A stretch of 64,000 nt of DNA from Dictyostelium discoideum (Eukaryota): positions 5,216,001 through 5,280,000 of the forward strand of contig CM000152.2 in NCBI GenBank assembly GCA_000004695.1, in the 5' to 3' direction. The position numbers were made by a program, and so were the translations under genes. Position 1 is the first letter of the stretch; each line of letters opens with the position of its first letter. The notes under the pieces are model-generated. The model saw only the letters and a program-made list of their open reading frames with translations. It was not told the DNA's origin and made no database searches. Below are positions 21,511 through 64,000 of the stretch, one piece after another.

Positions 21511-21564
21511 AAGGCTAACCTTCCTTTTTTTTTTTTATTTTATTTTATTTTATTTTAATTTAAT

Positions 21565-23031: not shown

Positions 23032-23268
23032 AAAACAAATCTGAATATTCTCTCTCTCCCCCCAACCTAACCCAATCTCTTCTTATTTTTTTTTTACACC
23101 TAAATTAATCTTATTATTTGAGATAATTACTAATATATATTTTTTTTTATTTATTTTTTAATTTTTTTTTTCTAAACACTTTAAAAAATATGATTTTTTT
23201 TTTCTAAACACTTTAAAAAATATGATTTTTTTTTTTTTTATTATTATTAATTTTTAAAAATAAAATAA

Positions 23269-23384
<116 letters not shown>

Positions 23385-23390
<6 letters not shown>

Positions 23391-32123: not shown

Positions 32124-33332
<1,209 letters not shown>

Positions 33333-40463: not shown

Positions 40464-40783
40464 ATAACAATTTTCATAATGCAAAATAATCCAAACAGAA
40501 ATAAAATAGATATTTTTTCATTTAACTTTTCAATTTTGTTTTTTTTTTTTTTTTTTTTTAAATTTTATCTCAAAAAATTGATTTTTTCACTTATTTATGG
40601 CAAAGGGGCAGTTAAACGTCTAACGAAAAAGATTTGGAAATTTATTTTTTTTTTAATTTTTTTTTTTTTAATTTGTTTTTTTTCAATTTTTTTTTTCGAG
40701 TTTTGTTAGATTCATTTTTTTAAAATTTTTTTTTTTTTTGTTAGAAAGTTAATCTCACAACTCTAATATATATATATAATAAA

Positions 40784-41636
40784 ATGAATAAGTTAACAAT
40801 TTTATTCTTAATTTTGGCTTTAATTTCAGTCATTTATGCTCAACACAAATGTAAGTTATTTTCATTTTTTTTTTTTTGTTACTGTTTTGGAATTCCTTTT
40901 TTTTTTTTTTTTTACCAAGTGGTACGAAAAGACGGAAATTAAAATTTTTTTTTTTAAAAAAAAAAAAAAAATCAGAAAAAAGATTTCGGTGTTAACATTT
41001 ATTTAAATAATGGTTTTTTTTTATTTTCTTTTATTTTATTTTATCTTAATTTAAATCAATATAGTCCCATCATCATCTGAAGATTCATCATCAAATGATT
41101 CAAATAGCCAAGTAACTGGTTCACAATCATACTCTGGTTCACAATCCGATTCAAACTCAGGATCAGAATCCCACACAATTAACACCGGTTCATCATATTC
41201 TGGTTCTGGTTCTGGTTCAAGTGGTATTTCAGGCGGTTGTAAGTATTCTTTAAATTCCTTAATAAGGAAAGAAAAAAAAAAAAAAAAAAAAAGAATTGTA
41301 GAAATTAACCAAATTCATTTTAAAAAAAATAGCTGGTTCAGGTTCAGGTTCAGGTTCAGGCTCAGGTAGCGGTTCAGGTTCAGGTTCAGGTGCTGTCAGT
41401 GGTTCACAATCAGGTTCAGGTGCTGTCAGTGGTTCACAATCAGGTTCAGGTGCTGTTAGTGGTTCACAATGTAATTATATTTTGAATTAAAATTAAAAAA
41501 TAAAGATATGTATTGACTCAAATTTTTTATTTTCTTATTTTAGCTGGTGTCCAAACTGGTTCACAATCAGGTGCTGGTAGTGCTTCAGGTGCTTTCACTG
41601 GTAACCCATGTAAGTATACTTTAAATATTTTTTAAT

Positions 41637-41689
<53 letters not shown>

Positions 41690-41884
41690 CAAGATAAATT
41701 AAAAAGCACATTGAAACTAACAATTAATTTATTATTACTTTTATTCTCTCTTTAAATAGCTGGTTCTCAATCTCAAGAAATTAATACTGGTTCATCATAC
41801 AGTGGTAGTGGTAGTGGTGCCCCAACTGGTGCCGCTACTGGTTCAGGTTCAGGTTCAGGTTCATCAGGAACAGTTTACTATTAA
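40784..41884 (+). CDS. secreted Ser/Gly-repeat protein; 5 exons (40784..40850, 41065..41258, 41333..41470, 41544..41609, 41760..41884), all introns phase 1
   Basis: Signal peptide '[22 protein letters not shown]'. Every exon ends '...T|GTAAGT' (one GTAATT) and every downstream exon begins 'AG|CTGGT', rebuilding a Ser codon. Exon 3 encodes '(GSGSGS)n [27 protein letters not shown]'. The protein ends '...[13 protein letters not shown]'. Intron 4 contains (TA)23 (41641..41686). Confidence 0.65.
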
Positions 41885-42025
41885 ATAAATTTTAAATTAT
41901 AACGAAATCATATTTTTCCAGTTTTCAAAACTTGGTCACGAAACAGTACTATTTCTTGACGATTTTTTATTTAATTATTGATGATACATTTATAGTTTTT
42001 ATAATTTTTTTAAAGAATTTATTAT

Positions 42026-45000
42026 TTAATTTTTAAAGATATAGTTTATATGATTTTGAATGATTTTTTCATTAACCATTCCTCCTTCATATGAGTTCAT
42101 TGATTGTAATAATTCTTTAGTTTTCTTTGAAACACCAAATCCATGACCCAAGTTATAAACACCATTGAGTCTATCTAATGAATGGAATGTTTTGAACTTT
42201 ATACATGATAGAATCTTTGATTGATTAATGATATTCTTCCATTGTTCATATTCAACCATTTCACATCCATATTGCTTTTCCAAGAATGAGAATGATGATT
42301 TAATTGATGAAACTTCACTATTTAAACTATAGATATTTAATTGATTTGAAGATGATTTATTCCAACATTTTTCATTTCCAATCATTTTAATTGTATTTAA
42401 ACCTATCCAACCAATTGGTGATGTTAATATGTTTTTATCAATATTTGGATACTTTTTAACTGCATAACATGATTGAATAATTAGTTGGAAGAAATCAGAA
42501 TCATGACCAATACCTGTTTCTTCATGTGAAAATATAATTGGTAGTCTAATTAACATTGATGGAATACCTCTTTTTGCTGCTTCTCTAAATAAATTTTCAA
42601 CAACTACTTTACTTTTCATATAACCACCTGGTAAATTATTAATATTTTCAATTGTTGGTATTACTGTTTCTTCATCAAATTCTTTACAATTTGGTGATTC
42701 AAAGAATACTGATATTGAACTAAATCCTACAATTGGTTTTTGATAATCACCAGTTGTTGAAAGTTTAATCAATTCAATTAAACCACCAATATTTACAACT
42801 TTACTCTCTTCATAATTTGATGCCAAATTAATATCGGCACCTGAATTAATTATTAAATTAATTTGGTTTGAAACAAAACCAAAATCTAATTTTGATAATC
42901 CTAATAATGGTGATGCTAAATTACCAACGATTACTTTAACTTTTGATAATTCAAATTCATTGTGAAAGTGATATAGTTTATGATGTTTCAAATTATTAAT
43001 TATTGCATTGATTGGATTTGGTTCTGATTTTTTATTTCTAATTAAACAATATACAACTGAACAGTTTGGTGATTTAATTAAGTTTGATAATAAATGAACA
43101 CCTAAAAATCCTGTTGCACCAGTTAAAAATACTTTTGAGTCATTTCTAAAATCAATTGGATTCATTTTAATTGCTTGAATTGATTCATCTAATTTCATTT
43201 CATTTCTCCAATATTCTAAACTTGGTGCTGAATCTTTTTTAATAATTTTTTTTGATTTTCCTTTAGTTTCATTTGAATCTAGTTTTTTGATTTGTTCTAA
43301 AATAATTTGAATATTTACTCCAATTGTATTATTTTGTAATTGTTGAAGTGTAATTACATTTGATTTATTTTCTTTATCAATGAAATTCTTTAATTGTACT
43401 GAAGTTAATGAATCTGCTCCATATTCACCTAAACGAATATCTGTGTTGATCTTTGATTGTTCAATTGATAAGAGTTCTGAAATTTTATTCAAAAATTTCA
43501 TTTGGATACTCTCTGAAATACTAATATTTTCACCACCATTATTATCATTATCTTTTTCCTTGATAGAATTTAAAATGAAATCTAATCTTTGGAAAGTTGA
43601 TGTTTCTGATGCGAATTTCTTAATTGAATCATAGTTAAATTTACTAACAATTAAATTTGAATATTTATTTGAATTTTGAAGTTGTAAATCTAATGAACCT
43701 AAAATTATATTTGTTGGAATTGGAATGAAACCTTGATCATCTAACATTTTTGAAACTGAATCATTTCTTGATACGAAACCTGATGATTTAATTGTTCCCC
43801 AATTTGTGCACGTTGATGGTAAACCAATTGATTTACGATATCTTGATAGTGAATCTAATACTAAATTTGCAGAAACATAAGTACATTGGTTGAATGAGCC
43901 AAATAATGATGCAATCGATGATGCCATAACAAATTGTTTTAATTTCCATGATTTCTCAATTGAGATTTCATGTAAATTAATTGCACCCATCGTTTTAGCA
44001 TTATGTGAAATATCTAATGATTCAATATCGATTTCTTCTACTTCTTTAGTTACTTGAGTGAACGCGTAATGGAATATTGAATCAATGTTATCAATATTTG
44101 GATTTTCTAATAAAATTTGATTAATTGATTTTCTCATTTCAATTGAATCACCAACATCTACGATCTTGAAATGGAACTTGGTGTTATTATCCTTTCTTGA
44201 TATTGTTTTATTGATTAATAGTTCTAACTCCCATTTTAATGATGATTTTGATAAAATGATAATGTTTTCAAATGATTCTGTTGGAGGTGAATATTTAATT
44301 AACCATTTTAAGATTTCTAAAATAATACCTGATTGACCTGTAATAATTATATTTTTACCAATTATATTTTTTGTATCAATTTTGAAATCATATTTTAATA
44401 TTGTATGATTCTTTTCATTGTTATCTGATTCAATGAGTTGATTTAATAATCCATCACTACCGATACTACCATTTGAACAACTATGATCTAATACAATTTT
44501 ACCAATATGTTTTCTTTGATTAATATATTCAATTGCTTCTTTGACATTTTCAATCTGGAATGTTGTTATCGGAATTAGTTTCACTTTGTTTTCATTTAAA
44601 GCATTTGAAATAGATTTTAATAATCTTGAAACTACTCTTTTATTAATATGCATAAATTCGATATTATGATAACTCTTGTTAAATTTGAAATTGTTGAAAT
44701 TTAAAAATTCATTGTTATTTAAATGGGTGATTGAGAGATCAATGATTTTACCTCTTTCTTTTAAACATAAAAAGTTTGAATGTGTAAATTCATTTGGTAA
44801 TGTATTTATAATTAAATCTACTCCGTTGAATTTACCAGTTGTACCATAAAGTTGATTTAATTTTGATTTGATTTCATTTACATAGTTTTTATTTCTTGAT
44901 GAATAAATTCCAGTTATGAATGATCCATAATTATCAATTAAATATTGTTCTTTATCTTTTGAACCTACTGTGACGAAAATTGGTGATTTATGACCTTTCC

Positions 45001-48000
45001 ATTTTAATATTTCTAATGTTGCTAAACCAATACCACCTGTTGCTGAGTGAATTAAAATGACTTCATCATCATCGATATTAAAATTACCAATGTTGAACAT
45101 ACCATGAAGACATGTTGAAAAAATGATTGGTAATGACGCTGCTTCAATATGACTAATATTATTTGGTTTATGTGAAACATAAAGTACATCAGTTATAACA
45201 TGAGATGCAGTTGCATCGTGTGATACACCAAAAACATTATCGCCTACTTTAAATTCACAATTTTTATTTTCATCAGATATTCTTGTGATAATACCTGAAA
45301 ATTCGAGACCAAGTGGATTTTTAGATATTGATACATTTTCATCAATAACAACTAAACCACGATAAATTAAATAATCTTTATAATTAATACCTGTTGCTAA
45401 AACTTTGACTTCAATTTCATTCTTTTTTAATTTCTTTGGTTTTGATGCTAATTTATATTCTAAATTTGTTGAATCTAAGAGTGTCATAAAATCATTATCT
45501 TCGAATGAATTTGAATTGAAGTTTGATTTTATATTCTTTTCATTCTTTAATATTTCATAATAAATTGAATTATTTCTAATTATATATTCTCTTTGAATAT
45601 GGTTATTTGAATTTTCAATCAATTGATTAATGATTTTATTTAATAATGATGATATCGATAATTGATTATCAAAATCGATTGAATATAGATTTAAACTTGG
45701 AAATTCATTAAAGTATCTTGATGCACCTATTATTGATGATGATAAATAGTTTTTGATTTGTGAATCAATAGTAATTAATACATGTTTACATGTTAAACTA
45801 TGTTTTAAAAGTTGTTGATTAATTTCAATATATTCCATTGTAATTTGTTTGAAATTATTCATTTCTAATTGTTCCATTGATTTAATAAAGTAAATTATTG
45901 AATCATTTGTTATTGAAGGTAATAGTTGATTAAATTCATTAATATTTGATATTGTTGTTTGTTTGCGATTGGTATGATTATTTGAAATTAATTTCTTAAA
46001 TTCATTTGTATATTTTGAATGTTTTTCACAATAAATGATAATATTATCATTTTTATTGTTTGGAACAACTGTTAATTCATTTGATAATATTGTAGATTTT
46101 TGTGATTGTATTACTTTGTTCGATTTCTGAATTTTGTTCTCATTAAAACCTACACCGATTAAATTATTGATATTAAATCGGATACCAATATCATCTTCAA
46201 TTATTAATAATAATAATCCATTTGAAGAAAGAATATTAAATATTGGTTTGATGATTGTTTCATCATTATTATTATTAATGATAATATCATAGTATGATGG
46301 TTTTAACTGGGTTATATCATTTTTAAAGATTAAACTTGAATCGTGTAAAGTTGGAAGTTTATCATTTGAATTATCAATAATTGTAAATTCTATATCGATT
46401 TCTTGTAAACTATTATCGAAAATTTGATTTAATGCTTCAATGATTTGTTTTGATAGTTCTGAATCTGAAAATGATTGTAAAATTCTAAAAACAATCTTTT
46501 CATTTATTATTGGTTTGATTGTTTGTTTAATAATTTCTGTAACTGTGTTGCTGCTGCCACTGCTGCTAGAAGTTTCATTATTATCAATGGATAAAATATT
46601 AACTAATGAATCTTTACATTGTAAATTATTTGTAAATAGTTCATTTGTAGGATTATTAAGTAATAATTCATCAATCAATGGAAGAGTTGAACGGAATGAT
46701 ATATGTTCTATTTCTAATAACTTTGTACCATCTTCTAATAAAACTAAAACTGATGATTTATAGCTATCTGCTTCCAAGGAGATGAATTTTGCTTGACAAT
46801 AGATATTCTTATATTTTAATTTGTCAGTTGGTATATTTTCAGAATAAACTTTTAAACCTTCAAGTCTTTCAAATACAAACTGGCTTGAATTTGTAATGAA
46901 TCCAGTGATGGCTTGTATACAGTTATCTAATAGCGCTATATTGAAAAATGATTTGTCAAATGTTTGATAAACAGGTTTACCATTGATATCAAAGTTTTCG
47001 TAGTTTATTTGTATTCTTGCAATTGTAAGATCATTGCCAAAGTGAAATTCTTCAATTCCTTGGAAAGTTCCTAAATGAGTGATACCTGATCTTAATTTAG
47101 AGTACTTATAAACTTCTTGTTTGGAAAGGGTAGTAAAATTACATTCTGATAGCAATTGATTTATATTATATTTAGATGAGTGATTATTATTATTATTATT
47201 ATTATTATCTTTTAATGATATAAGTTGAAAGTTACCAGTACATGTTTGAACCCATTGATTTGCTTTATTGTCTTTTATGTTGAATGTAACTCTATAATCA
47301 GTGTTACCTAATTGATAAACGTTGGTTTGTAAAATATGTTTGACATTTTCTTTTAAAACAAATGGTGCTAAAAATTCCAAGTTATTAATTACAATATCTT
47401 TATTTGGGTAAAGTTTCATAATATTATCAGCATATCCAATACCTGGGAAGTAATATTTTCCTTTTACAATATGGTCTTTTAAATATTTGAATGGATTTCT
47501 ATTTATATCGATTATTGATTCATATGATTTGTTATTTGATGAATAGTTAATCATTGATTTACCTAAGTTGTTGAAAACGTTTGGTCCATTTAATCTATAT
47601 TGTTCAAAGTTAATATCAACTTTCCAATAGTATTGTTCATCGAATTGATAGTTTGGTAAAATTATAGTGCTATTGTTTCTAATGGAATTGACATCATCAT
47701 CATTGTGATTGAATTGGCATTTAAAGTTTATATCATAACCTAAACAATAAATTTGTGAAATTGTTGAATGAATTTCATCTAAATCATTGGAGTTCTTTTT
47801 GTTTGTTGATGTTAATACTGAAACTGAATTAAAGTAACTTGATGATTTTGGTATCATTTGTTTTAAATAAAATGATAAACTTGGATGTGGTGAAACTTCA
47901 ATAAATATTAATTCATTACCAAGTTTATTATTTTCAATGTGTTGATATAAATTTGAAATAGTTTGAGAGAATCTGACAGGTTGTATTATATTTTCATAAA

Positions 48001-50453
48001 CATAACTTGAATTGAATGGAGTAGTTTCATGATTAAATAAATTAGTTGTAACTGTTGAAAATGTTGGAATTGTTGATTGTCTTGATGGTATTTCTAATGG
48101 TAAAATTTCATTTTTGGTTGAGTTTTGGCTACTTGTGTGGAATGATGATAATGAACCTAAAAATGCGCAAAAGATATTATTTTCTTTTAAGTCTAATGAT
48201 ATCTCTTTTAAAATATTTTCATTACCTGCAATTACAATTGATGTTGGTGAATTATAGCATGCAACTTCAATTGTTGGATATTTATTTGAATAAAGTTCAA
48301 TAAATTCTGAATGACTGATATTGACTGATAACATTTTACCACATCCATTTGTATTATTTTGAGAAATTGATCTGTGGTAAATTAATTTACAAACTGTTTG
48401 GAAATCTACCATACCTGAACAATATGATGTTGCTATTTCACCTAAACTATGACCAACAATGAATGATACATTGATACCCCAATGTTTGTATAGTTCAAAT
48501 AATGATATTTGTAACATTAATATCGATGGTTGAGCGATTATTGGTTGATGGATTGATATAATGTCATCATCTTTAATTGATCTTAATTTATCTAAAACTG
48601 AGTATCCATAGTATTTACTTAACTCTTTATTGAATTTGTCCATCGATGATCTGAATATTGGTTCACATTCATAAAGTTGTTGAGCCATTTTATTCCATTG
48701 TGAACCTTGACCTCCGAAAACAATAACAATCAATGGTTGATTTCTTTTAATTGTAATATTTGAGGATTTGTCATTGCTTGTTTTAAAGTACTTGTTTTTA
48801 GTTTTTAATTGATCCCAATTACTTGAAATTAAAACTGATCTTTGATATAGTTTCTTTGATTTTGAATAAATTTGATTCTTAACAAACTCTTTGAATGAAT
48901 TTGTAGAAAGATTATTATCATTTATTATTAAGTCTTCATAATTTTTTAATGATTTTACTGAATTGGCTGAAAATGGTATTAAAAATATTTGTTGTTGCGA
49001 TTCAATTGGATAACTAGGGTTATTACCATTTAGACTGATTGAGTGTTCAATAAATTGTGATAAAATTAAACAACAATTTGAGCCAGTTACACCAAAGTTA
49101 TTAATAACCATTGATACTGGTTTTTCATTAATATTTGTAAATGGTATTGCTTCTGTTACAACTTTAATATTCCAATCTTTAAAGTTAATCTTTGGATTTG
49201 GTTGATCAAAATTAACATTTGGTGCATAATGTTTATTTTTAAACATTAAACAACATTTGATTAATGATGCAACACCTAATATTAATATTAATATTTATAA
49301 AAAAAAGAGTTAAAAATTAATATATATATTTTTTTTTTATATGGTTTATAAATGGTTATAGCTTACCACTTGCAGCTTCACAATGACCAATATTAGATTT
49401 GAGTGATCCAATGAGTAATGGTTTAGATGGTGTTGATGTTGTTGATGAATTTAGAGCCATTGATACACCTTCTACTTCAATTGGATCACCTGTTGGTGTT
49501 CCTGTACCATGACATTCTACGAAACTAATATCTGATGCTTTCATATTTGCACTTTTCAATGCTAATTTGATATTATCAGATTGTGATTGTTTGGATGGTG
49601 AATAAAAGTTTGATTTATCATTTAAACCACCTCCATCGACATTTGAACTAAATGAATTAATTACACAATAAATATTATTACCATCTCTAATTGCGTCTGA
49701 TAATGGTTTTAAAATTACAATACCACAACTCTCTGCACGAATGTAACCATCTGCTTCTGAATCAAATGGTTTACATTTACCTTTTTTACTTAACATATTT
49801 AAAAATGAAAATGATTTTGAAACGTATGGATCAAGTAATAAACTGGCACCACCCACAATTGATAGATTTGAAGTACCATTTTGAATTGATTGAAAACCCA
49901 TTGTAATTGAATTCAATGATGAAGAACATGCTGTATCAATTGTCATTGATGGACCTCTGATATCATATGAAAATGATAATCTATTTGAAATGGTATGAAG
50001 AACATTTGATGCGAAATAATTTTCAGATGTTTCATTAAAGTCTCTATTTGTTGTTGAATAATCTAATGTTGAGCAACCAATGAAACAAGATGTATTTGAA
50101 CCTCTAATATCGATTGGATCGATGAATGCATCTTCTAATGCTTCCCATGTACACTTTAATAGTAATCTTGTTTGTGGATCCATTAGGGGTACTTCTGATG
50201 GATTGATTGCGAAATGAACTGGATCGAAATCACTCCATTCTTTTAATGGTAATAATCCACCAAATTTATTATTAACTTCACCGAGTAAATTGATATTGTC
50301 ACTCCATCTTTCTGATGTTTCAACAATACCACTGAATCCATTCTTTAAATTATTCCATAAATGTGAAACACTACCATTATTAATTGATTCTTTACCTTGT
50401 GGAATTCTAAATCCAATACCTACAATGGCAATTTCTTTATTTCCAAATTCCAT
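42026..50453 (-). CDS. type I iterative polyketide synthase, copy A (2778 aa); complement(42026..49275, 49367..50453); KS-AT-DH-linker-ER-KR-ACP-R
   Basis: KS: Cys '[13 protein letters not shown]' (about 49930) plus '[12 protein letters not shown]' and 'GHCEAASG'. A 91-nt intron (donor GTAAGC at 49366..49361, acceptor 'ttag' at 49279..49276, phase 1) lies just before '[19 protein letters not shown]'. AT: 'GQGSQW' and 'GHSLGE' (about 48440). DH: 'HxxxGxxxxP' as '[15 protein letters not shown]' (about 47460). ER (MDR): '[15 protein letters not shown]' (about 45035). KR: '[17 protein letters not shown]' (about 44335). ACP: '[14 protein letters not shown]' (about 43410). C-terminal reductase: '[18 protein letters not shown]' (about 43115) with about 390 aa beyond it. 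There is no obvious SAM motif in the about 600-aa DH-ER spacer. Confidence 0.9.
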
Positions 50454-50996
50454 TTTCTTTTAATACACTAAAAACATTGATTCCAATAGTTGCTGATTAC
50501 ATAACGAAGGGAATGAGAGTGGACAATTAATTTTTAATCTTTTTATTTAAAAATATGGTGCTTTTTTGTTTTGTAAGGAATGTTAGAAATTATTACTATT
50601 TATTTATTTATTTTTATTTATATTTTAATATTATTACCATAAACACTTGTGTAAATAAATACATACATATAAATTATTTTTGTTAATTTTTTAAAAAGAA
50701 AAAAAAAAATTTTAAAAAAAAAAATTTAAAAAAAAAATGAAAAAAGAAAAAAAGAAAAAAATTATTAATAAAAAAAAAAAAAAAAAATAGAAAAAATATT
50801 ATTTAATAATAATTTAGTGGTGGTTTAAAACAATATATTTAATTTTATACTATATGATTGTTTAAAACAATTTGGAAATTATATTCTTTAATTTTTGGTT
50901 AATTTTTTTTTTTTTTTTTTTATCTTATTTTTTTTTTTTTTATAATTATTCTAATTAATTTAATATTATGATTTAAAAATAAAAAATTAATATTTG

Positions 50997-51080
50997 AAAA
51001 GTGATTGGTGGTAAAAAAAAAAAAAAGTGATTGGTGGTAAAAAAAACTTACTTAACTTTTTTTTTTTTTCTTTTTTACCA
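50997..51080. repeat. direct repeat 'gtgattggtggtaaaaaaaa' x2 plus inverted copy 'ttttttaccaccaatc' (hairpin-capable), about 550 bp upstream of the PKS-A ATG
   Basis: Directly visible. Non-AT core 'gattggtgg / ccaccaatc'. Confidence 0.6.
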
Positions 51081-52487
51081 CCAATCTCTTTTCATATATT
51101 AATTTTATATTTTTAAATCATAATATTAAATTAAAAAAAAATAAATTTATTTGCACAGAAAACTTAACAAAATATTAAAATATAATAAATAAAATTTAAT
51201 TTTAATAAAAGCTGTTAGTTCTTTTTTTAAATTAATAAATTTTATTAAAAAATAAGATAAAAATTAAAAAAAAAAAAAAAAATATATATTCAAAAATTAA
51301 ACTTATTTTATAATTAAAAAAAAAAAACATATTTTATTAAAATATAATTAATACTAAAAAATAAGATAATATAGGAATGTTAAAAATTAATTAAATAATA
51401 AATATTTAAAATTTATTATTTAATAAAAATTATTAAAAAATAAGATTTATTATAAAAATGTAACTTTAAAAAAAAAAATAATAAAATATATTGAAAAATA
51501 AGATGTATAATAAAAAAAAAAAATTTAAACATTTTATAATTTTAGATTTTATTATTAAACATCTTTAAAAATAAGATAAAAAATTCGTATGATAAATTTT
51601 AATAATTATAATCTTCTTTTGTTGGCTATAAAAGTAAGTTTTTAATTTTATTTTTATATTTAATAATATCTATTATTGTTTCGTTTTAATTTATTTTTAT
51701 TTTTTTTAATTTTTGTTTTTATAATTATACAATATCTATTATTATTATTTTTAATTTTTATTTTTATATCTATTATTAATTCATTTTAATTTTTTTTTTT
51801 TTTTTTAATTTTTATTTTTATTATAATGTAAAAAATTATGGTCACCCAAGTAGAAAATTAAAAGAAATAAATTTGTAAAAAAAAAGAAGCATTATTTTAT
51901 AATTCTTTATCTCTTTCTTTTAAAATAGTACCTTTTGTTCTTTTAATTTTTATTTTTTTCACGTAACAATGATAGTTCTAATTACGTTTGTGTTGGCATT
52001 CTTAATTTCCAAGTTACGTTCAATTTGAGAAATGTTTCAGTCTTGAAACAGAAAATCATTTAAACCATTGCCTTGTAACCCTTACCAAAGGCAGAGAAGA
52101 AAACATTAATTACTCTTCAAGAATGGGTCAAAAATAGATATAATGTAAATTATTTATGTATTATTCAATATACTAATTTTTAAAAAAAAAATATCATTTT
52201 TTATACTAATTAAAAACTAATATCATTTTTTTTCTCCATATTATATATTTTTTATTATTTTATATATTAAATATATTATAATATAAAAATATTATATTAA
52301 TTTTTAACAATTTTCTTTGGGCTCTATAAAGCTCCCCACAAAACCATTTCCAAGTCAATCTCCTGCTGATTCTGCTGGTAAATGAATCAGATTCCGATTT
52401 AAATTAACCAAGCAATAAATTTTTTTTTTTTTATTATCAACTGTCTCATCAACTTCCAACAACAATTTCCTCCATTATTTGTATCAT

Positions 52488-52600
52488 TATTGTATCATCA
52501 CTGTTTCATTATAATAAATAATAATAATAAAATTTTCCAATATTTTTTTTTATTATTTATTATAATGAAACGGTAATGATACAATAATGATGAAACAGTA
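52488..52600. repeat. imperfect about 45-bp inverted repeat ('tgtatcattattgtatcatcactgtttcattataataaataat ... attatttattataatgaaacggtaatgatacaataatgatgaaacagtaatgataca'), 200-300 bp 3' of PKS-B
   Basis: Directly visible. Arms are about 80-90% complementary with a short spacer. Confidence 0.55.
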
Positions 52601-52802
52601 ATGATACAATTATCAATCAATAATCATATCTTAGTTAAACTAATTAATTTTTATAATAATTCATAATATTTGTAAATATTAAATTAAAAAAAAAAAAAAA
52701 AAAAAAAATAATTTAAAAATAAATATGGATAATAAAAATTTAGGTGGTGTAAAAAAGGTGCTTTGGATTTTAAGAAAAATGAAAAAACTAAGATTTGTTT
52801 AT

Positions 52803-55800
52803 TTAATTTTTAAAAATATAGTTTATATGATTTTGAATCATTTTTTCATTGACCATTCCTCCTTCATATGAGTTCATTGATTGTAATAATTCTTTAGTTT
52901 TCTTTGAAACTCCAAATCCATGACCCAAGTTATAAATGTTATATAAATCATCTAATGAATGGAATGTTTTTAATTTTATACATGATAGAATCTTTGATTG
53001 ATTAATGATATTCTTCCATTGTTCATATTCAACCATTTCACATCCATATTGCTTTTCCAAGAATGAGAATGAAGGGTTCATTGCTGAAACTTCACTATTT
53101 AAACTATAGATATTTAATTGATTTGAAGATGATTTATTCCAACATTTTTCATTTCCAATCATTTTAATTGTATTTAAACCTATCCAACCAATTGGTGATG
53201 TTAATATGTTTTTATCAATTTTTGGATACTTTTTAACTGCATAACATGATTGAATGATTAACTGCAAGAAATCAGAATCATGACCAATACCTGTTTCTTC
53301 ATGTGAGAATATAATTGGTGGTCTAATTAACATTGATGGAATACCTCTTTTTGCTGCTTCTCTAAATAAATTTTCAACAACTACTTTACTTTTCATATAA
53401 CCACCTGGTAAATTATTAATATTTTCAATTGTTGGTATTACTGTTTCTTCATCAAATTCTTTACAATTTGGTGCATTAAAGAATACTGATATTGAACTAA
53501 ATCCTACGATTGGTTTTTGATAATCACCAGTTGTTGAAAGTTTAATTAATTCAATGAAACCACCAATATTTACAACTTTACTCTCTTCATAATTTGATGC
53601 CAAATTAATATCGGCACCTGAATTAATTATTAAATTGATTTGATTTGAAATATAATCAAAATCTAATTTTGATAATCCTAATAATGGTGATGCTAAATTA
53701 CCAACTATAACTTTAACTTTTGATAATTCAAATTCATTGTGAAGTTGATATAGTTTATGATGTTTCAAATTATTAATTATTGCATTGATTGGATTTGATT
53801 CTGATTTTTTATTTCTAATTAAACAATATACAACTGAACAATTTGGTGATTTAATTAAGTTTGATAATAAATGAACACCTAAAAATCCTGTTGCGCCTGT
53901 TAAAAATACTTTTGAATCATTTCTAAAATCAATTGGATTCATTTTAATTGCTTGAATTGATTCATCTAATTTCATTTCATTTCTCCAATATTCTAAAGTT
54001 GGTGCTGAATCTTTTTTAATAATATATTTTGATTTTCCTTTAGTTTCATTTGAATCTAGTTTTTTGATTTGTTCTAAAATAATTTGAATATTTACTCCAA
54101 TTGTATTATTTTGTAATTGTTGAAGTGTAATTACATTTGATTTATTTTCTTTATCAATGAAATTCTTTAGTTGTACTGAAGTTAATGAATCTGCTCCATA
54201 ATCACTTAAACGAATATCTGTGTTGATCTTTGATTGTTCAATTGATAAGAGTTCTGAAATTTTATATAAAAATTTCATTTGGATACTTTCTGATATACTA
54301 ATATTTTCACCACCATTACTGTCATTATCTTTTTCTTTGATTGAATTTAAAATGAAATCTAATTTTTGGAAAGTTGATGTTTCTGATGCGAATTTCTTAA
54401 TTGAATCATAGTTAAATTTACTAACAATTAAATTTGAGTATTTATTTGAATTTTGAAGTTGTAAATCTAATGAACCTAAAATTATATTTGTTGGAATTGG
54501 AATGAAACCTTGATCATCTAACATTTTTGAAACTGAATCATTTCTTGATACGAAACCTGATGATTTAATTGTTCCCCAATTTGTGCATGTTGATGGTAAA
54601 CCAATTGATTTACGATATCTTGATAATGAATCTAATACTAAATTTGCAGAAACATAACTACATTGGTTGAATGAGCCAAATAATGATGCAATCGATGATG
54701 CCATAACAAATTGTTTTAATTTCCATGATTTCTCAATTGAAATTTCATGTAAATTAATTGCACCCATCGTTTTAGCATTATGTGAAATATTTAATGATTC
54801 AATATCGATTTCTTCTACTTCTTTAGTTACTTGAGTGAATGCATAATGGAATATTGAATCAATGTTATCAATGGTTGGATTTTCTAATAAAATTTGATTA
54901 ATTGATTTTCTCATTTCAATTGGATCACCAACATCCACACTATTGAAATGGAATTTAGTGTTATTATCCTTTCTTGATATTGTTTTATTGATTAATAGTT
55001 CTAACTCCCATTTTAATGATGATTTTGATAAAATGATAATGTTTTCAAGTGATCCTGTTGGAGGTTTTGAAGGTGAATATTTAATTAGCCATTTTAAGAT
55101 TTCTAAAATAATACCTGATTGACCTGTAATAATTATATTTTTACCAATTGTATTTATTGTATCGATATTAAAATCATATTTTAATATTGTGTGATTCTTT
55201 TCATTGTTATCTGATTCAATGAGTTGATTTAATAATCCATCACTACCGATACTACCATTTGAACAACTATGATCTAATACAATTTTACCAATATGTTTTC
55301 TTTGATTAATATATTCAATTGCTTCTTTGACATCTTCAATCTGGAATGTTGTTATTGGAATTAGTTTTAATTTATTTTCATTTAAAGCATTTGAAATGGA
55401 TTTTAATAATCTTGAAACTACTTTTTTATTAATATGCATAAATTCAATATTATGATAACTCTTGTTGAATTTGAAATTGTTGAAATTTAAAAATTCATTA
55501 TTATTTAAATGGGTGATTGAGAGATCAATGATTTTACCTCTTTCTTTTAAACATAAAAAGTTTGAATGTGTAAATTCATTTGGTAATGTATTTATAATTA
55601 AATCTACTCCGTTGAATTTACCAGTTGTACCATAAAGTTGATTTAATTTTGATTTGATTTCATTGACATAGTTTTTATTTCTTGATGAGTAAATTCCAGT
55701 TATGAATGATCCATAATTATCAATTAAATATTGTTCTTTATCTTTTGAACCTACTGTGACGAAAACTGGTGATTTATGACCTTTCCATTTTAGTATTTCC

Positions 55801-58800
55801 AATGCTGCTAAACCAATACCACCTGTTGCTGAGTGAATTAAAATTACTTCATCATCATCGATATTAAAATTACCAATGTTGAACATACCATGAAGACATG
55901 TTGAAAAAATGATTGGTAATGATGCTGCTTCAATATGACTAATATTATTCGGTTTATGTGAAATCCAAAATGCATCAGTTATAACATGAGATGCAGTTGA
56001 ATCGTGTGATACACCAAATACATTATCGCCTACTTTAAATTCACAATTTTGATTTTCATCAGATATTCTTGTGATAATACCTGAAAATTCGAGACCAAGT
56101 GGATTTTTAGATATTGATATATTTTCATCAATAATGACTAAACCACGATAAATTAAATAATCTTTATAATTAATACCTGTTGCTAAAACTTTGACTTCAA
56201 TTTCATTCTTTTTTAATTTCTTTGGTTTTGATGCTAATTTATATTCTAAATTTGTTGAATCTAAGAGTGTCATAAAATCATTATCTTCGAATGAATTTGA
56301 ATTGAAGTTTGATTTTATATTCTTTTCATTCTTTAATATTTCATAATAAATTGAATTATTTCTAATTATATATTCTCTTTGAATATGGTTATTTGAATTT
56401 TCAATCAATTGATTAATGATTTTATTTAATAATGATGATACTGATAATTGATTATCAAAATCGATTGAATATAGATTTAAACTTGGAAATTCATTAAAGT
56501 ATCTTGCTGTACCTATTATTGATGATGATAAATAGTTTTTGATTTGTGAATCAATAGTAATTAATACATGTTTACATGTTAAACTATGTTTTAAAAGTTG
56601 TTGATTAATTTCAATATATTCCATTGTAATTTGTTTGAAATTATTCATTTCTAATTGTTCCATTGATTTAATAAAGTAAATTATTGAATCATTTGTTATT
56701 GAAGGTAATAGTTGATTAAATTCATTACTATTCGATATTATTTGCTTGGAATTGGTATGATTATTTGAAATTAATTTCATAAATTCATTTGTATATTTTG
56801 AATGTTTTTCACAATAAATGATAATATTATCATTTTTATTGTTTGGAACAACTGTTAATTCATTTGATAATATTGTTGATTTTTGTGATTGTATTACTTT
56901 ATTTGAATTTTGAATTTTGTTTTCATTAAAACCTACATTGATTAAATTATTGATATTAAATTGAATACCAATATCATCTCCAACTATTAATAATAGTCCA
57001 TTTGAAGAAAGAATATTAAATATTGATTTGATGATTGTTTCATCATCACCATCATTATTATTATTAATGATAATATCATAGTATGATGGTTTTAACTGGG
57101 TTATATCATTTTTAAAGATTAAACTTGAATCGTGTAAAGTTGGAAGTTTATCATTTGAATTATCAATGATTGTAAATTCAATATCGATTTCTTGTAAACT
57201 ATTATCATCGAAAATTTGATTTAATGCTCCAATGATTTGTTTTGATAATTCTAAATCTGAAAATGATTGTAAAATTCTAAAAATAATTTTTTCATTAATA
57301 ATTGGTTTGATTGTTTGTTTAATAATTTCTGTAACTGTATTGCTGCTGCTGCTGCTAAAAGTTTGATTATTATCAATGGATAAAATATTAACTAATGAAT
57401 CTTTACATTGTAAGTTATTTGTAAATAATTCAGTTGTAGGATTATTAATTAATAATTCATCAATCAATGGAAGAGTTGAATGGAATGATAAATGTTCTAT
57501 TTCCAATAACTTTGTACCATCTTCTAATAAAACTAAAACTGATGATATATAGCTATCTGATTCCAAGGAGATGAATTTTGATTGACAATAGATATTTTTA
57601 TATTTTAATTTGTCAGTTGGTATATTTTCAGAATAAACTTTTAAACCTTCAAGTCTTTCAAATACAAACTGGCTTGAATTTGTAATGAATCCAATAATGG
57701 CTTGTGCGCAATTATCTAATAGCGCTGTATTGAAAAATGATTTGTCAAATGTTTGATAAACAGGTTTACCATTGATATCAAAGTTTTCGTAGTTTATTTG
57801 TATTCTTGCAATTGTAAGATCATTGCCAAAGTGAAATTCTTCAATTCCTTGGAAAGTTCCTAAATGAGTGATACCTGATCTTAATTTAATGTACTTGTAT
57901 GCATCTTGTTTTGAAAGAGTTGTAAAATAACATTCTGATAGTAATTGATTTATATCATATTTTGATGAGTTATGATCTTTTAATGATATAAGTTGAAAGT
58001 TACCAGTACATGTTTGAACCCATTGATTTGTTTTATTATCTTTTATGTTGAATGTGACTCTATAATCAGTGTTACCTAATTGATAAACGTTGGTTTGTAA
58101 AGTATGTTTGACATTTTCTTTTAAAACAAATGGTGCTAAAAATTCCAAGTTATTAATTACAATATCTTGATTTGGGTAAAGTTTCATAATATTATCAGCA
58201 TATCCAATACCTGGGAAGTAATATTTTCCTTTTACAATATGGTCTTTTAAATATTTGAATGGATTTCTATTTATATCGATTATTGATTCATATGATTTGT
58301 TATTTGATGAATAGTTAATCATTGATTTACCTAAGTTGTTGAAAACGTTTGGTCCATTTAATCTATATTGTTCAAAGTTAATATCAACTTTCCAATAGTG
58401 TTGTTCGTCGAATTGATAGTTTGGTAAACTGATATTGACCTTGCTGTTTCTAATGGAACTGACATCATCATTGTGATTGAATTGACACTTGAAGTTTACA
58501 TCATAACCTAAACAATAAATTTGTGAAATTGTTGAATGAACTTCATCTAAATCATTGGAGTTTTTTTTGTTTGTTGATGTTAATACTGAAACTGAATTAA
58601 AGTAACTTGATGATTTTGGTATCATTTGTTTTAAATAAAATGATAAACTTGGATGTGGTGAAACTTCAATAAATATTAATTCATTACCAAGTTTATTATT
58701 TTCAATGTGTTGATATAAATTTGAAATAGTTTGAGAGAATCTGACAGGTTGTATTATATTTTCATAAACATAACTTGAATTGAATGGAGTAGTTTCATGA

Positions 58801-61315
58801 TTAAATAAATTGGTTGTAACTGTTGAAAATGTTGGAATTGTTGATTGTCTTGATGGTATATCTAATGGTAAAATTTCATTTTTAGTTGAATGTTGACTAC
58901 TTGTGTGGAATGATGATAATGAACCTAAAAATGCACAAAAGATATTATTTTCTTTTAAATCTAATGATATCTCTTTTAAAATATTTTCATTACCTGCAAT
59001 TACAATTGATGTTGGTGAATTATAACATGCAACTTCAATTGTTGGATATTTATTTGAATAAAGTTCAATAAATTCTGAATGACTGATATTGACTGATAAC
59101 ATTTTACCACAACCGTTTGTATTATTTTGAGAAATTGATCTGTGGTAAATTAATTTGCAAACTGTTTGGAAATCTACCATACCTGAACAATATGATGTTG
59201 CGATTTCACCTAAACTATGACCAACAATGAATGATACATTGATACCCCAATGTTTGTATAGTTCAAATAATGATATTTGTAACATTAATATTGATGGTTG
59301 AGCGATTATTGGTTGATGTATTGATATAATATCATCATCTTTAATTGATCTTAATTTATCTAAAACTGAGTATCCATAGTATTTACTTAACTCTTTATTG
59401 AATTTATCCATCGATGATCGGAATATTGGTTCACATTCATAAAGTTGTTGAGCCATTTTATTCCATTGTGAACCTTGACCTCCGAAAACAATAACAACTA
59501 ATGGTTGATTTCTTTTAATAGTAATATTTGAGGATTTGTCATTATTTGTTTTAAAGTACTTGTTTTTAGTTTTTAATTGATCCCAATTAATTGAAATTAA
59601 AACTGATCTTTGATATAATTTCTTTGATTTTGAGTAAATTTGATTCTTAACAAACTCTTTGAATGAATTTGTAGAAAGATTATTATCATTTATTATTAAG
59701 TCTTCATAATTTTTTAATGATTTTACTGAATTGGCTGAAAATGGTATTAAAAATCTTTGTTGTTGTTGTGATTCAATTGGATAACTAGGGTTATTACCAT
59801 TTTGATTGATTGTTCAATAAACTGTGATAAAACTAAACAACAATTTGAACCAGTTACACCAAAGTTATTAATAACCATTGATACTGGTTTTTCATTAATA
59901 TTTGTAAATGGTATTGCTTCTGTTACAACTTTAATATTCCAATCTTTAAAGTTAATCTTTGGATTTGGTTGATCAAAATTAACATTTGGTGCATAATGTT
60001 TATTTTTAAACATTAAACAACATTTGATTAATGATCCAACACCTGAAATTAATATTTATAAAATAAAAAAAAAGTTAGAATTAATATTTTTGGTTTTTTT
60101 TATTTTATTTTATAAATGGTTATAACTTACCACTTGCAGCTTCACTATGACCAATATTAGATTTGAGTGATCCAATGAGTAATGGTTTAGATGGTGTTGA
60201 TGTTTTTGATGAATTTAGAGCCATTGATATGCCTTCTACTTCAATTGGGTCACCTGTTGGTGTTCCTGTACCATGACATTCTACGAAACTAATATCTGAT
60301 GCTTTCATATTTGCACTTTTCAATGCTAATTTGATATTATCAGATTGTGATTGTTTGGATGGTGAATAAAAGTTTGATTTATCATTTAAACCACCTCCAT
60401 CGACATTTGAACTAAATGAATTAATTACACAATAAATATTATTACCATCTCTAATTGCGTCTGATAATGGTTTTAAAATTACAATACCACAACTCTCTGC
60501 ACGAATGTAACCATCTGCTTCTGAATCAAATGGTTTACATTTACCTTTTTTACTTAGCATATTTAAAAATGAAAATGATTTTGAAATGTATGGATCTATA
60601 TAAATAAATGTATATAATAATTAAAAAAAAAAGAAAAAGAAAATTGAAGAATAAAAATAAAATAATAAATGTTTAAATTCTGAATTAACATACCAAGTAA
60701 TAAACTGACACCACCCACAATTGATAGATTTGAAGTACCATTTTGAATTGATTGAAAACCCATTGCAATTGAATTCAATGATGAAGAACATGCTGTATCA
60801 ATTGTCATTGATGGACCTCTGATATCATATGAAAATGATAATCTATTTGAAATGGTATGAAGAACATTTGATGCGAAATAATTTTCAGATGTTTCATTAA
60901 AGTCTCTATTTGTTGTTGAATAATCTAATGTTGAGCAACCAATGAAACAAGATGTATTTGAACCTCTAATATCGATTGGATCGATGAATGCATCTTCTAA
61001 TGCTTCCCATGTACACTTTAATAGTAATCTTGTTTGTGGATCCATTAGGGGTACTTCTGATGGATTGATTGCGAAATGAACTGGATCGAAATCACTCCAT
61101 TCTTTTAATGGTAATAATCCACCAAATTTATTATTAACTTCACCGAGTAAATTGATATTGTCACTCCATCTTTCTGATGTTTCAACAATACCACTGAATC
61201 CATTCTTTAAATTATTCCATAAATGTGAAACACTACCATTATTAATTGATTCTTTACCTTGTGGAATTCTAAATCCAATACCTACAATCGCAATTTCTTT
61301 ATTTTTAAATTCCAT
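52803..61315 (-). pseudogene. type I PKS copy B: near-identical paralog of copy A, 3 exons with a frameshifting 4-nt deletion in exon 3. Exons about 60694..61315 and 60130..60595; exon 3 is the two fragments 59812..60042 and 52803..59811, broken by the frameshift at 59811/59812
   Basis: Line-by-line, the sequence matches copy A with 0-4 differences per 60 nt (offset about 10.8 kb). Same domain motifs (KS 'GHSEAASG', AT 'GHSLGE', R '[10 protein letters not shown]'). Relative to A it has (i) an extra 98-nt intron 60596..60693 (GTATGT...tatatag) splitting 'LLL|D|PY' in the KS domain; (ii) the shared KS-C-terminal intron 60043..60129; (iii) a 4-nt deletion at about 59811/59812 (A 'GAACACTCAATCAGTCTAAATGG' vs B 'GAACAATCAATCAAAATGG', minus strand). 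This puts '[10 protein letters not shown]' into a frame that stops after '[18 protein letters not shown]'. The remaining 2217-codon ORF (52803..59456 and open up to about 59811) is in another frame. No plausible intron rescues it. The pseudogene call assumes the sequence is correct. Confidence 0.7.
60596..60693 (-). other. copy-B-specific phase-1 intron within the KS domain (absent from copy A)
   Basis: B has 98 extra AT-rich nt that begin GTATGTTAATTC and end TTTATATAG exactly between codons that are contiguous in A ('TTACTTG|ATCCATAC'). Confidence 0.75.
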
Positions 61316-61932
61316 TTTTTTTTTTTTTTTTTTTTTTTAGTACACCAAAAATAAAAATAAAATAAAAAAAAATAAAACAATTTATACCATTTAAAAATAT
61401 TACTATTTTGAAGGACCAAAGTGAGAAATGAAAACTTTGCTCTTGATAGTTATGATTACATTCCAAAGGGGGCTGATTATTAATTAATTTTAAATCTTTT
61501 GGTTATAAAAAAAAAAAAATAAAATTGAGAATTTTTAAAAAAAAAAAATTAAAAAAGAAAATAAAAAAAAATTAAAAAAAAAAATTAAAAAATCTCCAAA
61601 AATATCTTATTACCTAATTATCATCGGGAAAAAAAAAAGTTGATTAGAAACAAAAATTATTTTAAATTTTTATTGGAGCCTGTGGTTTTTGCAAGATATT
61701 TTAAATAACACTTTGAAACCAAAAGTTGTAATTAGTAAAAATAAAAAAAAAAAAAATAGAAGATTATATTTGGGCAAATAAAAAAAAAAATTTTATGGTA
61801 TTAAATTAAATATTTAATTTAGCCATGAGATTTAAATAATTTAAGATTTATTTTTTACACTTTGGGATTTTTTTTTATTTTTTTATTTCCGGAACTCTTT
61901 TAATTAAGGATGTTGTAGGGAATTTTCAATAA

Positions 61933-61993
61933 AATTTCACTACAGTAGCGTAGTGAATTTTATTATTTAATTTCACTACAGTAGCGTAGTGAA
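61933..61993. repeat. tandem direct repeat of a 23-bp GC-containing unit 'tttcactacagtagcgtagtgaa' (2 copies, 14-bp spacer)
   Basis: Directly visible. It lies between the PKS-B 5' region and the retroelement fragment. Function unknown. Confidence 0.8.
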
Positions 61994-62420
61994 AAAAAAA
62001 AATCACTGACCCTAAATTTTTTTTTTTTTCAAAAAACAAATAAAGTTTATTAAATTATTATCTTTTATTTGATTATTAGTTCTATTTAAGTTTTTTTATT
62101 TTTTTTTTTTTATTTTATTTTTTTTTTTTTTTATTTTATTTTTTTTTTTTTTTTTTGCGCCAAAATTTTTTTTTTTTTTCCCCAACAAAACTTTTTTTTT
62201 TTTTTTTTTTTTTTTTATTTTCATTTTCCCAAAATGAAACAAGATAAATTATTTAAAATTTATTGAAGATAATAATTTTGAAAATACTAAACATAAAAAT
62301 TATAAATTTTTACATGATGAGTAAATATTTTTCCTTACCATAACACAATCATTTTTTAAATTCTGACCAATAAAAAACAGAAACAGAAAAGAAAAATTAT
62401 TTAGAATTGAAAAAAAAGTC

Positions 62421-64000
62421 ATGAATTGTGGCGGAGATAGAAATATATCAAAAGAAGTGTGTTTAGAAGTAATTAATGATTATAGAATGGTATCACTCTG
62501 GGAAGAAATGCATAAAGGTCATATAGGAAGAGATGCAACCTATGGGAACTACAAGACTAAATATTATAATATGGGATTGTATTCTTTTGTATCTGATGCA
62601 GTAGATACGTGTGACATTTGCCAACGAAATAGAATAAAAGGTTTGGTATCAATCATTTTTTATATGATGTTTTGTAACTTTTATATTAAAACTCTGTGAA
62701 AGTATGGCACTGCGATAATGGACGTGAATTTAAAAACAAAGTCCAAAAAGAATTCCTAAAACTTTTTCCAGGCTCCAAGTCAGCACATGGAGCTCCTCGT
62801 ACACCAACAACTCAAGGTATGGTAGAAAGATTGAATCGAACTATCAAGGAGAGGATCTCAAAATTAAAACAACAAGAGTATGATATTGTGAACAATATAA
62901 ATTATCGATATGTTTATTAATTAATCATTTATAAATAAATTTTAGTTTTCTTGATGGTACTTCTAGGTCTCTTTCTGAACTATTAAAACAAGCTTTGTAT
63001 GATTACAATAATACAAAAACAAGAACAATTAAAATGACACCATCTCAAGCTGTTGGTATTGTACCTTTGTTTATTAATGTGCAATCAGAACAAGACTCTC
63101 AATCAATTGGTGTTTCAGATGTTTCAAAAGAAGAAATAACAGCTATTATTCTTGAAAATCTCACAAGTTACCAAAATCAATGGAATTCAAAACCACCAAA
63201 GGGATTGAAAGTTGGTGATACTGTACTCTTTCTAGAAATTAAAAAAAATAATGTAAGTAATTAAAACATAAAGATTAATAATATATGAAACAGTAATAAT
63301 TAACAAATTTTATATTTAATTCTAATAGAAAATATTGATTTTGTGTAAAATTCATAAGGTAATACAGGAAGACACTAAACAACTTTATAAACTTGAATTT
63401 TTGGAAGATGGAATCAATAGCCTTCAAAAAAAAGGTTTATACTCTGGTTTTGTAGGAGGTAACAAGTTGGTTCTTTATAAACAATCAACAGTTGATATTT
63501 TTAGAACATCGCCAAACATACAAAAAGATATTGATTCTTTTACTTCTGGTCTTTATTTAAATAATGATGGGAAAGTTATTGAATTTCTGGTTCAGTTTAT
63601 TAAAAATCTTGGTAAGGATTTATCCAATTTCAACTTGCATCAATTGGTAACACAAAATGATCCATTTAGGGTTTTGGAAGATGCTCTTAACAATCCATCA
63701 AATATTCCACCTATCATTAACGATAATCCATTTCAACACAAACTCAATAATGAAATGGAACAAGAAGAAATACTCCCATTTTTAAATAATAATCCAACAG
63801 CGCCAAATTTAATGAATTGTTTGAGAAAGGATATGAATTTAAAAGAAATAGTACCACCAATACCTCAAGTGCAAATAATACCATCATATACTATACCACA
63901 ATCTGGTAGTGGTATAGTAACAACTGTTAAACGTCTCAGAGGCCGTCCTCATAAGATACCAATTGTTAATAAACCTCCTTTAAAATCACATTCTAAACCA
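62421..64000 (+). mobile_element. degenerate, 5'-truncated Ty3/gypsy-type LTR-retrotransposon pol fragment (integrase zinc finger, DDE core remnant, C-terminal region); continues beyond the window
   Basis: 'HKGHIGRDATYGNY...CDICQRNRIKG' is the integrase HHCC zinc-binding motif. 'WHCDNGREFKN...HGAPRTPTTQGMVERLNRTIKE' is the rve-core DDE region (second D and E). The ORF is broken into at least 3 frames (62421..62699, 62696..62920, 62995..63264, then an open frame to 64000 ending '...KRLRGRPHKIPIV', AT-hook-like). Only about 20 aa separate the zinc finger from the 'HCDNGREF' motif, implying an internal deletion. No RT/RNase H or LTR lies upstream within 61340..62420. Confidence 0.65.

Follow-up and report, generated by a model that had tools for sequence, protein, structure and literature searches.

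Three tandem polyketide synthase genes on chromosome 3

The stretch of Dictyostelium discoideum AX4 chromosome 3 considered here, all 64,000 nucleotides (nt) of which are referred to as the window, is AT-rich (GC per 2 kb, 13-32%) and carries on its minus strand two large polyketide synthase (PKS) genes, copies A and B, that are arranged head to tail with their starts separated by 10,862 base pairs (bp), and whose shared history is the subject of this report. The spliced product of copy A is identical over 2,778 amino acids (aa) to ‘Probable polyketide synthase 19’ of D. discoideum AX4 (Q54T36, DDB_G0282027). A third copy, pks21 (DDB_G0282029), is located just past the end of the window, upstream in the direction of transcription, and the head-to-tail order along the chromosome is pks21, pks20 (copy B) and pks19 (copy A). 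The UniProt numbering contains no pks20, and copy B is presumably the pks20 pseudogene. A previous reading of the window, made from its sequence only, had described two copies; that description was accurate for the pair itself, but the array comprises three copies, and copy B bears an additional 98-bp intron and a frameshift that the earlier reading had missed.

The sequence-only reading had also identified both genes as reducing type I PKS genes of ~8.4 kb, and domain searches bore this out for the KS, AT, ER, KR, ACP and reductase domains, with the DH domain falling below cut-off. The domain order in copy A, as assigned by Pfam, is KS-AT-(DH)-ER-KR-ACP-R, and the core PKS domains reside in one polypeptide (PF00109/PF02801, E 1e-62 / 5e-31; PF00698, 3e-39; and PF23297, the ACP, 8e-30). 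The KR (PF08659, 93 bits) and the ER (PF08240 and PF13602; ADH_N and ADH_zinc_N_2) exceed the Pfam cut-offs, the DH matches lie just under the curated ones (PF21089, 25.9 bits; PF14765, 19.2 bits), and the C-terminal NAD_binding_4 reductase domain scores 153 bits; no methyltransferase domain was found in the Pfam search. The motifs DTACSSS, GHSLGE and GADSL can be read in both copies, and, the frameshift aside, neither copy has lost its KS, AT, ACP or R-domain motifs. The KS motif beside the conserved KS histidine reads GHCEAASG in pks19 (~49410) and GHSEAASG in pks20 (~60170); the T that gives the Cys is found in pks19 and in its positional orthologue from isolate R (R_584, see below), pks21 differs at two bases of the codon, and the other copies have the pks20 (Ser) base.

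In the list of open reading frames (ORFs) on the minus strand, the long frames of copy A (42026-49246 and 49356-50453) and of copy B (52803-59456 and 60596-61315) are each split, because they are interrupted by introns or frame breaks (Table 1). Intron 2 is 76-81% identical among pks19, pks20 and pks21. The frameshift in copy B corresponds to the loss of one CAAT unit from CAATCAATCAAT, a short repeat of tetranucleotide units, at 59812-59805, near codon 445, and is spanned in a new annotation (KAM9950444, P0128, 2,762 aa) by means of an artificial intron. The pseudogenisation of pks20 looks recent, because this loss is private to the pks20 of AX4 and AX2, and pks19, pks21 and the positional orthologue of pks20 in isolate W (W_1040) are all intact. 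A processed (retroposed) origin for one of the copies was considered and rejected: both possess an intron at the same site, copy B keeps both of its introns, and the copies are adjacent.

Table 1. Features of the pks19-pks20 region, in window coordinates
Feature	Position	Strand	Details
Copy A, pks19 (DDB_G0282027)	42026..50453	-	ATG at 50453, TAA ends 42026; one intron; 2,778 aa; spliced translation equals Q54T36/EAL66435.1
Sole intron of copy A	49276..49366	-	91 nt; homologous to intron 2 of copy B and pks21; GT..AG splicing restores frame
Site of precise intron 1 absence in copy A	49832..49833	-	junction of TTACTTG and ATCCATAC
Copy B, presumably the pks20 pseudogene	52803..61315	-	ATG at 61315, stop ends 52803; two introns; frame broken by a 4-bp deletion
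Copy B intron 1	60596..60693	-	98 nt; GTATGT..ATAG
Copy B intron 2	60043..60130	-	88 nt
Copy B frameshift site	59797..59815	-	sequence gaa caatcaatcaaaatgg
A-side similarity block	42013..50461	-	blastn limits and boundary alignment
B-side similarity block	52790..61323	-	blastn limits; the pks21 block has the same limits
Longest perfect A/B stretch	49904..50427	-	523 nt (coding positions 26-549); null 99.9th percentile 375 nt
pks20-type promoter region	61316..61914	-	orthologous to upstream of W_1040 and Z_6582/Z_6585; unrelated to pks19 and pks21 promoters
pks19 3' flank	40470..42025	-	orthologous to the sequence 3' of the final array gene in R and W; orthology with D. firmibasis partial
pks20-pks19 spacer	50454..52802	-	2.35 kb; ~16% GC; no gene called
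Integrase ORFs	62421-62699 and 62696-62920	+	

A shared unit that ends at the borders of the coding sequence

Comparison of copy A with copy B by blastn returned one block of 95.81% identity over 7,852 nt (42013-49832 against 52790-60596) and a second, 5' block of 99.05% over 630 nt (49832-50461 against 60694-61323), all remaining matches being short AT-rich repeats. In a global alignment, most 200-column windows inside the unit are 91-100% identical, with values down to 74-88% where such windows contain indels or intron 2, and identity falls to 32-60% within one 200-column window outside it. The two copies differ by 276 substitutions, several indels, one intron and one frameshift. The earlier description of a nearly identical pair was therefore correct in that two same-strand PKS genes are alike, but overstated in degree, as identity is 96% and not ~100%. 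The longest perfect stretch between them lies in a ~1.1-kb tract at the 5' end, homogenised across the AX4 trio. Among the indels, a 21-nt (AAT)7 difference (window ~47182-47202 in copy A, ~57971 in copy B) corresponds to a run of eight Asn in pks19 and none in pks20, and further in-frame indels of 3-9 nt distinguish the two genes.

The limits of the shared unit are closely tied to the coding sequence (CDS). Similarity starts ~8 nt before the ATG, preceded by the remnant of a motif between about -30 and -10 (tttttagtgtattaaaag / tttttggtgtactaaaaa), and stops 13 nt past the TAA; pks21 (locus record L001, 9997-18530) matches window 61319-52790. Upstream, from -31 to -330, copies A and B are 59.4% identical (shuffled sequence, 55.3 +/- 1.9), and downstream, from +21 to +320, they are 49.7% identical (shuffled sequence, 52.8 +/- 1.4); the flanking 300 nt are thus no more alike than shuffled sequence, and the flanks of the AX4 paralogues have nothing in common beyond -8 to -30 and +13. 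These measurements agree well with the sequence-only reading, which had quoted the upstream motif, had placed the limits at ~30 bp before the ATG and ~20 bp past the stop with an abrupt loss of similarity outside them, and had put each copy behind an unrelated promoter and 3' region; the AX4 flanks are indeed unalignable. A simple segmental duplication, in which identity would continue far into the flanks, is contradicted by the same pairwise alignment.

That reading had further raised the possibility of an assembly artefact, in which one gene had been expanded to two, or a larger number collapsed. While the general difficulty of assembling repeats in an AT-rich genome is the one consideration in its favour, such an artefact deserves almost no credence, given the many differences between the copies enumerated above and the structure of a separate D. 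discoideum assembly (GCA_054883475.1). The latter is colinear with window 60453-31959 (99.73% over 28.5 kb) and 100% identical to window 61911-56081, including 5.8 kb of copy B, and contains both copies, the spacer between them and the frameshift. It would appear to be the AX2-214 Nanopore and Illumina assembly of PMC12745789, because its pks19 is the same as that of AX4 and that study describes AX2 and AX4 as near-identical.

The array in other isolates and species

The same locus was found to harbour two copies in D. discoideum isolate R (ACTFIR; R_584 and R_585), three in D. discoideum isolate W (ACTFIW; W_1040, W_1041 and an unannotated copy 1 that is cut by the contig start), two annotated copies in D. 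cf. discoideum Y (ACTFIY), and five copies together with an internally deleted one in D. cf. discoideum Z (ACTFIZ; among them Z_6582 and Z_6585), such that copy number among isolates ranges from 2 to 5. Three copies are present in D. citrinum, and two, accompanied by a 727-bp R-domain relic, in D. firmibasis (of which Fir_6238 is the last). In the genomes for which the outer flanks were recovered (AX4, R and D. firmibasis), one Vault-domain gene and one common set of downstream genes border the array; for D. citrinum, the locus sequence covers only the three copies and their spacers. Within-genome amino acid identity is 98% in D. firmibasis and 97-98% in D. citrinum, as compared with 82-88% between species. 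Protein-based counts understate the size of the array, because the third copy of W is missing from the protein set; this pks21-type copy (L009 1-8443) is truncated by the contig end 11 nt after its ATG. The D. firmibasis relic derives from the PKS reductase-domain region (L002 7879-8600), lies upstream of the first copy and is 92-93% identical to the intact copies, and the internally deleted copy of Z (L007 ~20616-21662) joins the first 266 nt of the CDS to positions ~6638-7414. A search of the spacers and outer flanks of AX4 for PKS relics gave none.

Comparison of 600 nt on either side of every array copy established that flanks unrelated between paralogues are nonetheless orthologous between isolates. 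By position, R_584 and W_1041 correspond to pks19, W_1040 to pks20, and R_585 and W copy 1 to pks21. The pks19 promoter is 89-90% identical to those of R_584 and W_1041; the pks20 promoter matches that of W_1040 at 79-85% and those of Z_6582/Z_6585 at 73-88%; and the pks21 promoter matches that of R_585 at 78-90%. The pks19 3' flank is 82% identical over 620 nt to those of R_584/W_1041 and matches that of Fir_6238 in patches of 75-91%, and one continuous high-scoring segment pair of 94% runs through the gene into the pks19-type 3' flank. The pks19-proximal ~890 bp of the AX4 spacer (50456-51348), including the pks19-type promoter, matches in colinear order the entire 0.9-kb spacer of R and W (69-70% over ~900 bp, E 1e-111 to 1e-122; ~90% in the proximal 340-370 bp). 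This is the only match clearly above AT-rich noise in a low-stringency blastn comparison of the spacers of other strains and species with the AX4 array, which otherwise returned mostly such noise at 56-65% identity.

Since each AX4 promoter class, as well as the pks19 3' flank, has orthologues elsewhere, all three positions of the array, along with their separate flanks, already existed when the AX4 lineage diverged from the other isolates of the D. discoideum clade. In strain R, the interval bounded by the Vault gene and the downstream genes contains only two copies, and the first of these combines a pks21-type promoter with a 3' flank like that of W_1040 (88% over 630 nt), a combination that would be the expected product of a crossover between positions 1 and 2. 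Neighbouring copies in Z, D. citrinum and D. firmibasis in some cases have 200-300 nt of flank in common, at 80-94% identity (for example, 86.7% upstream in D. firmibasis, 93.6% downstream in Z and 88% downstream in D. citrinum), which fits younger duplications by unequal exchange.

Divergence and phylogeny along the gene

The overall synonymous divergence (dS) is 0.081 between copies A and B, 0.094 between copy A and pks21, and 0.083 between copy B and pks21, and the ratio of nonsynonymous to synonymous divergence (dN/dS) is 0.24-0.30. These averages conceal a markedly uneven profile, with dS as low as 0.008-0.024 over codons 1-400 in all three pairs, and as high as 0.29-0.34 for pks21 over codons 1000-1200. 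Differences between copies A and B are overdispersed (index of dispersion 3.2), and site patterns among the three copies are clustered (198 runs, as compared with an expectation of 284.6 +/- 9.8; longest run, 32; P<1e-4). Across the whole gene, AX4 paralogues differ from one another (p-distance 3.3-4.2%) as much as positional orthologues do (3.3-4.3%).

Neighbour-joining trees with bootstrap support, computed for segments along the alignment columns, demonstrate that the phylogeny changes from one part of the gene to the next. The three AX4 copies are monophyletic in columns 0-1100 (bootstrap 100%) and again in columns 5000-5500 (96%). In columns 3500-4000 the copies instead group by position, with pks21 joining R_585 (100%) and pks19 joining R_584 and W_1041 (100%); pks21 and R_585 there differ by 1.7% from each other and by 11.4% from the remaining copies. 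At 18 sites the three AX4 copies all carry a base that is absent from 8 other copies, which are invariant at those sites.

The suggestion that the pair arose by recent duplication, also made in the sequence-only reading, must be weighed against this background. Such an event in the AX4 lineage would have had to copy only the coding region and some 20 nt on either side, and to place it behind unrelated sequence. While pks19 and pks20 are nearest relatives in the whole-gene tree (bootstrap 100%) and their dS is just 0.081, both as a recent origin would predict, the pks20 promoter has orthologues at W_1040 and Z_6582/Z_6585, so that its position is old; those of pks19 and pks21 likewise have orthologues in other isolates, and W has three copies. 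Moreover, the identical limits of all three AX4 copies would require three independent events with the same ends, and neither the nonuniform divergence nor the shifts in phylogeny along the gene are accounted for. A recent duplication of this kind is consequently very improbable.

Intron 1 and probable conversion tracts

Intron 1 is present in pks20, pks21, R_584, W_1040, W_1041, Z, D. citrinum and both D. firmibasis copies, and is absent from the pks19 of AX4, from R_585 and from W copy 1; in the positional orthologues of pks19 it measures 84 nt (R_584) and 80 nt (W_1041). The presence or absence of this intron appears to have moved between array positions, because the intron-less copy occupies the pks19 position in AX4 and the pks21 position in R and W. 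The bases surrounding the missing pks19 intron (C607, G760 and T790) are of the R_585/W copy 1 type, and not of the type found at the pks19 position. The intron 1 sequences of pks20 and pks21 are identical at 98 of 98 positions, whereas numerous substitutions and indels separate the orthologous introns of other strains. The first 27 nt of pks21 (ATGAAATTAGAAATC) are position-specific, as in R_585, and are followed by more than 1.07 kb that is identical to pks20, intron 1 included. This 5' portion of pks21 thus has the appearance of a visible conversion tract whose 5' end is located inside the CDS, and the most recent tracts end within the first ~30-85 nt of the CDS, and not in the promoter.

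On the simplest reading of these patterns, an intron-less, pks21-type patch would first have been copied into pks19, overwriting its intron 1, after which sequence from pks20 would have replaced the 5' end of pks21 over 1.07 kb or more, intron 1 included. The direction and order of such individual conversion events are inferred.

The state of intron 1 also bears upon two further explanations. According to the first, the duplications are old and no conversion has taken place, purifying selection having kept the coding sequences alike while the flanks decayed. A dN/dS of 0.24-0.30 does indicate constraint on the CDS, but constraint of that type does not account for an overall dS of 0.08, far less for the values in the first 400 codons, nor for the complete identity of a noncoding intron between pks20 and pks21, the derived bases common to all AX4 paralogues, or the several tracts in which paralogues are closer than positional orthologues; purifying selection without conversion is extremely unlikely to be the explanation.

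According to the second, homogenisation is templated by transcripts or cDNA, through RNA-mediated repair, and the shared block corresponds to the transcribed unit. The block does end near where a transcript would start and stop, and one allele carries a base-perfect intron deletion, as such a process would produce. Introns are nonetheless kept in all copies, pks19 retains intron 2 only 465 nt from the lost intron 1, and the intact copying of intron 1 between pks20 and pks21 requires a DNA template, so that a purely RNA-templated process has only a slender chance of being correct. A broader version, in which the block is bounded by the transcription unit and homogenisation is partly transcription-coupled or partly templated by transcripts or cDNA of any of the three paralogues, seems a little less improbable, while still very unlikely; if true, it would account both for the limits within ~10-30 nt of the ATG and ~13 nt of the stop in all copies and for the movement of the base-perfect intron-less allele.

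Origin of the homogenised unit and of its limits

The explanation that best accommodates these observations, and that is very probably correct, is that pks19 and the frameshifted pks20 are the last two genes of an old array, whose bodies have been homogenised by interlocus gene conversion together with unequal crossing-over. The mosaic pattern along the genes, flank orthology, shared derived bases, the identical intron and variable copy number are each observed directly. In the proposed process, the transcribed and coding bodies would be repeatedly overwritten by one another through non-allelic gene conversion, and unequal crossing-over would alter the number of copies. Conversion can neither begin nor resolve without homology, and the flanks, AT-rich and prone to indels, would have none left; tracts would end inside or at the edge of the CDS, and the block would hug it, because the flanks lack homology. 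Of the possibilities offered by the sequence-only reading, the one upheld is thus continuing gene conversion restricted to the coding unit, on the strength of the mosaic phylogeny, the derived bases, the intron and flanks that are orthologous between isolates and unrelated between paralogues.

While conversion is common ground, the sharp limits of the unit might instead be maintained by selection that removes tracts erasing paralogue-specific regulation. The promoter class of each position is constant across isolates, and the newest tracts end in the first ~30-85 nt of the CDS rather than in the promoter, both of which would be expected if selection were at work. The pks20 pseudogene, however, has the same limits, and in D. 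firmibasis, Z and D. citrinum the blocks extend 200-300 nt into the flanks, which fits mechanics limited by homology. Selection as the factor that sets the limits is accordingly judged unlikely, if by no means negligible, and the boundary was probably set by the missing homology of the flanks; selection for distinct promoters may contribute to it.

Several considerations weigh against gene conversion within an old array. Conversion is deduced wholly from present-day sequences, with a single assembly per isolate; some of the flank orthology, in short AT-rich segments, comes from alignments of 73-85% identity, and the isolates compared are fairly diverged (~4% in the CDS and 10-20% in promoters). 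In comparisons between species (D. firmibasis and D. citrinum), separate duplications at one locus would give the same pattern as homogenisation of an ancestral array. Finally, the ends of tracts near the ATG and stop could also reflect selection against the homogenisation of promoters.

Sequence upstream of pks20 and elsewhere in the window

The window matches GCA_054883475.1 exactly as far as 61911-61914, past which the two are unrelated, a break that represents either a structural difference or a misassembly of the reference between pks21 and pks20. Within window 61915-64000, ~600 bp upstream of pks20, lies a retroelement fragment with an Integrase_H2C2 domain (E 6e-9) and a weak match to rve_3, and a duplicated ‘AATTTCACTACAGTAGCGTAGTGAA’ motif is found near 61.98-62.06 kb. 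No tRNA genes were found within window 39-64 kb, and there is therefore no sign of a tRNA-targeted retroelement in the pks20-pks19 spacer. Dispersed matches of ~120 nt at 23.2 kb and 32.6 kb were rejected as related sequence: they correspond to (ATT)n microsatellites (window 23248-23393 and 32558-32680) that give spurious 94-99% matches to other loci.

Relation to known systems and significance

Concerted evolution of tandem genes is a standard part of molecular evolution, with the primate gamma-globin pair and Drosophila hsp70 being classic cases of its operation through interlocus gene conversion. The PKS array resembles those systems in its mosaic tracts, shared derived substitutions and homogenised introns, in the abrupt end of homology at gene borders, and in the change of copy number by unequal crossing-over. 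It differs from them in the unusual length of the unit (8.4 kb), in the inclusion of a participating pseudogene, and in the movement of intron presence and absence between positions. Within D. discoideum, there are reportedly 45 PKS genes, about 5 of them pseudogenes, with closely similar genes grouped in clusters of 2-5, and with promoters said to be far more divergent than the genes themselves, which is the very pattern picked out in the sequence-only reading; the PKS genes are also said to differ in their developmental expression, a point in favour of selection as the factor that keeps the limits of the unit sharp. The present array belongs directly to that setting, as copy A is pks19 itself and pks21 its neighbour in the array.

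In the same genomes, the members of another gene family have likewise been duplicated, recombined and rearranged locally, at the tgrB/tgrC allorecognition locus (PMC12745789). The tgr locus, however, diversifies, with swapped regions that cannot be aligned, whereas the pks19-21 array is homogenised and its flanks remain syntenic. No link between Dictyostelium PKS genes and gene conversion was found in the literature searched. With its genes annotated and the phenomenon well established, the array is an ordinary case of concerted evolution and of modest interest, and what the present analysis adds is local and modest as well: that the positions are old, that a pseudogene takes part in the exchange, and that the state of an intron has apparently moved between paralogues.

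Those additions do bear upon the manner in which the PKS repertoire of these organisms is read. The absence of one-to-one PKS orthologues between dictyostelid species has been interpreted as species- or lineage-specific expansion (PMC3188802; Sucgang et al. 2011). At the pks19-21 locus, in contrast, the array occupies a syntenic position in four taxa and the positions appear to be old within the D. discoideum clade, with similarity being maintained by conversion; near-identity there is no indication that genes arose recently, the clustering of copies by strain or species would be due at least in part to gene conversion, and the pks20 pseudogene would still be exchanging sequence with its functional neighbours. 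Caution is therefore warranted for tree-based claims of independent PKS expansion in each dictyostelid species (PMC3188802), because homogenisation can yield the same tree pattern. That the concerted evolution of old arrays underlies much of the ‘lineage-specific expansion’ attributed to the PKS genes of dictyostelids is regarded as likelier than the possibility, discussed above, of a unit bounded by its transcript.

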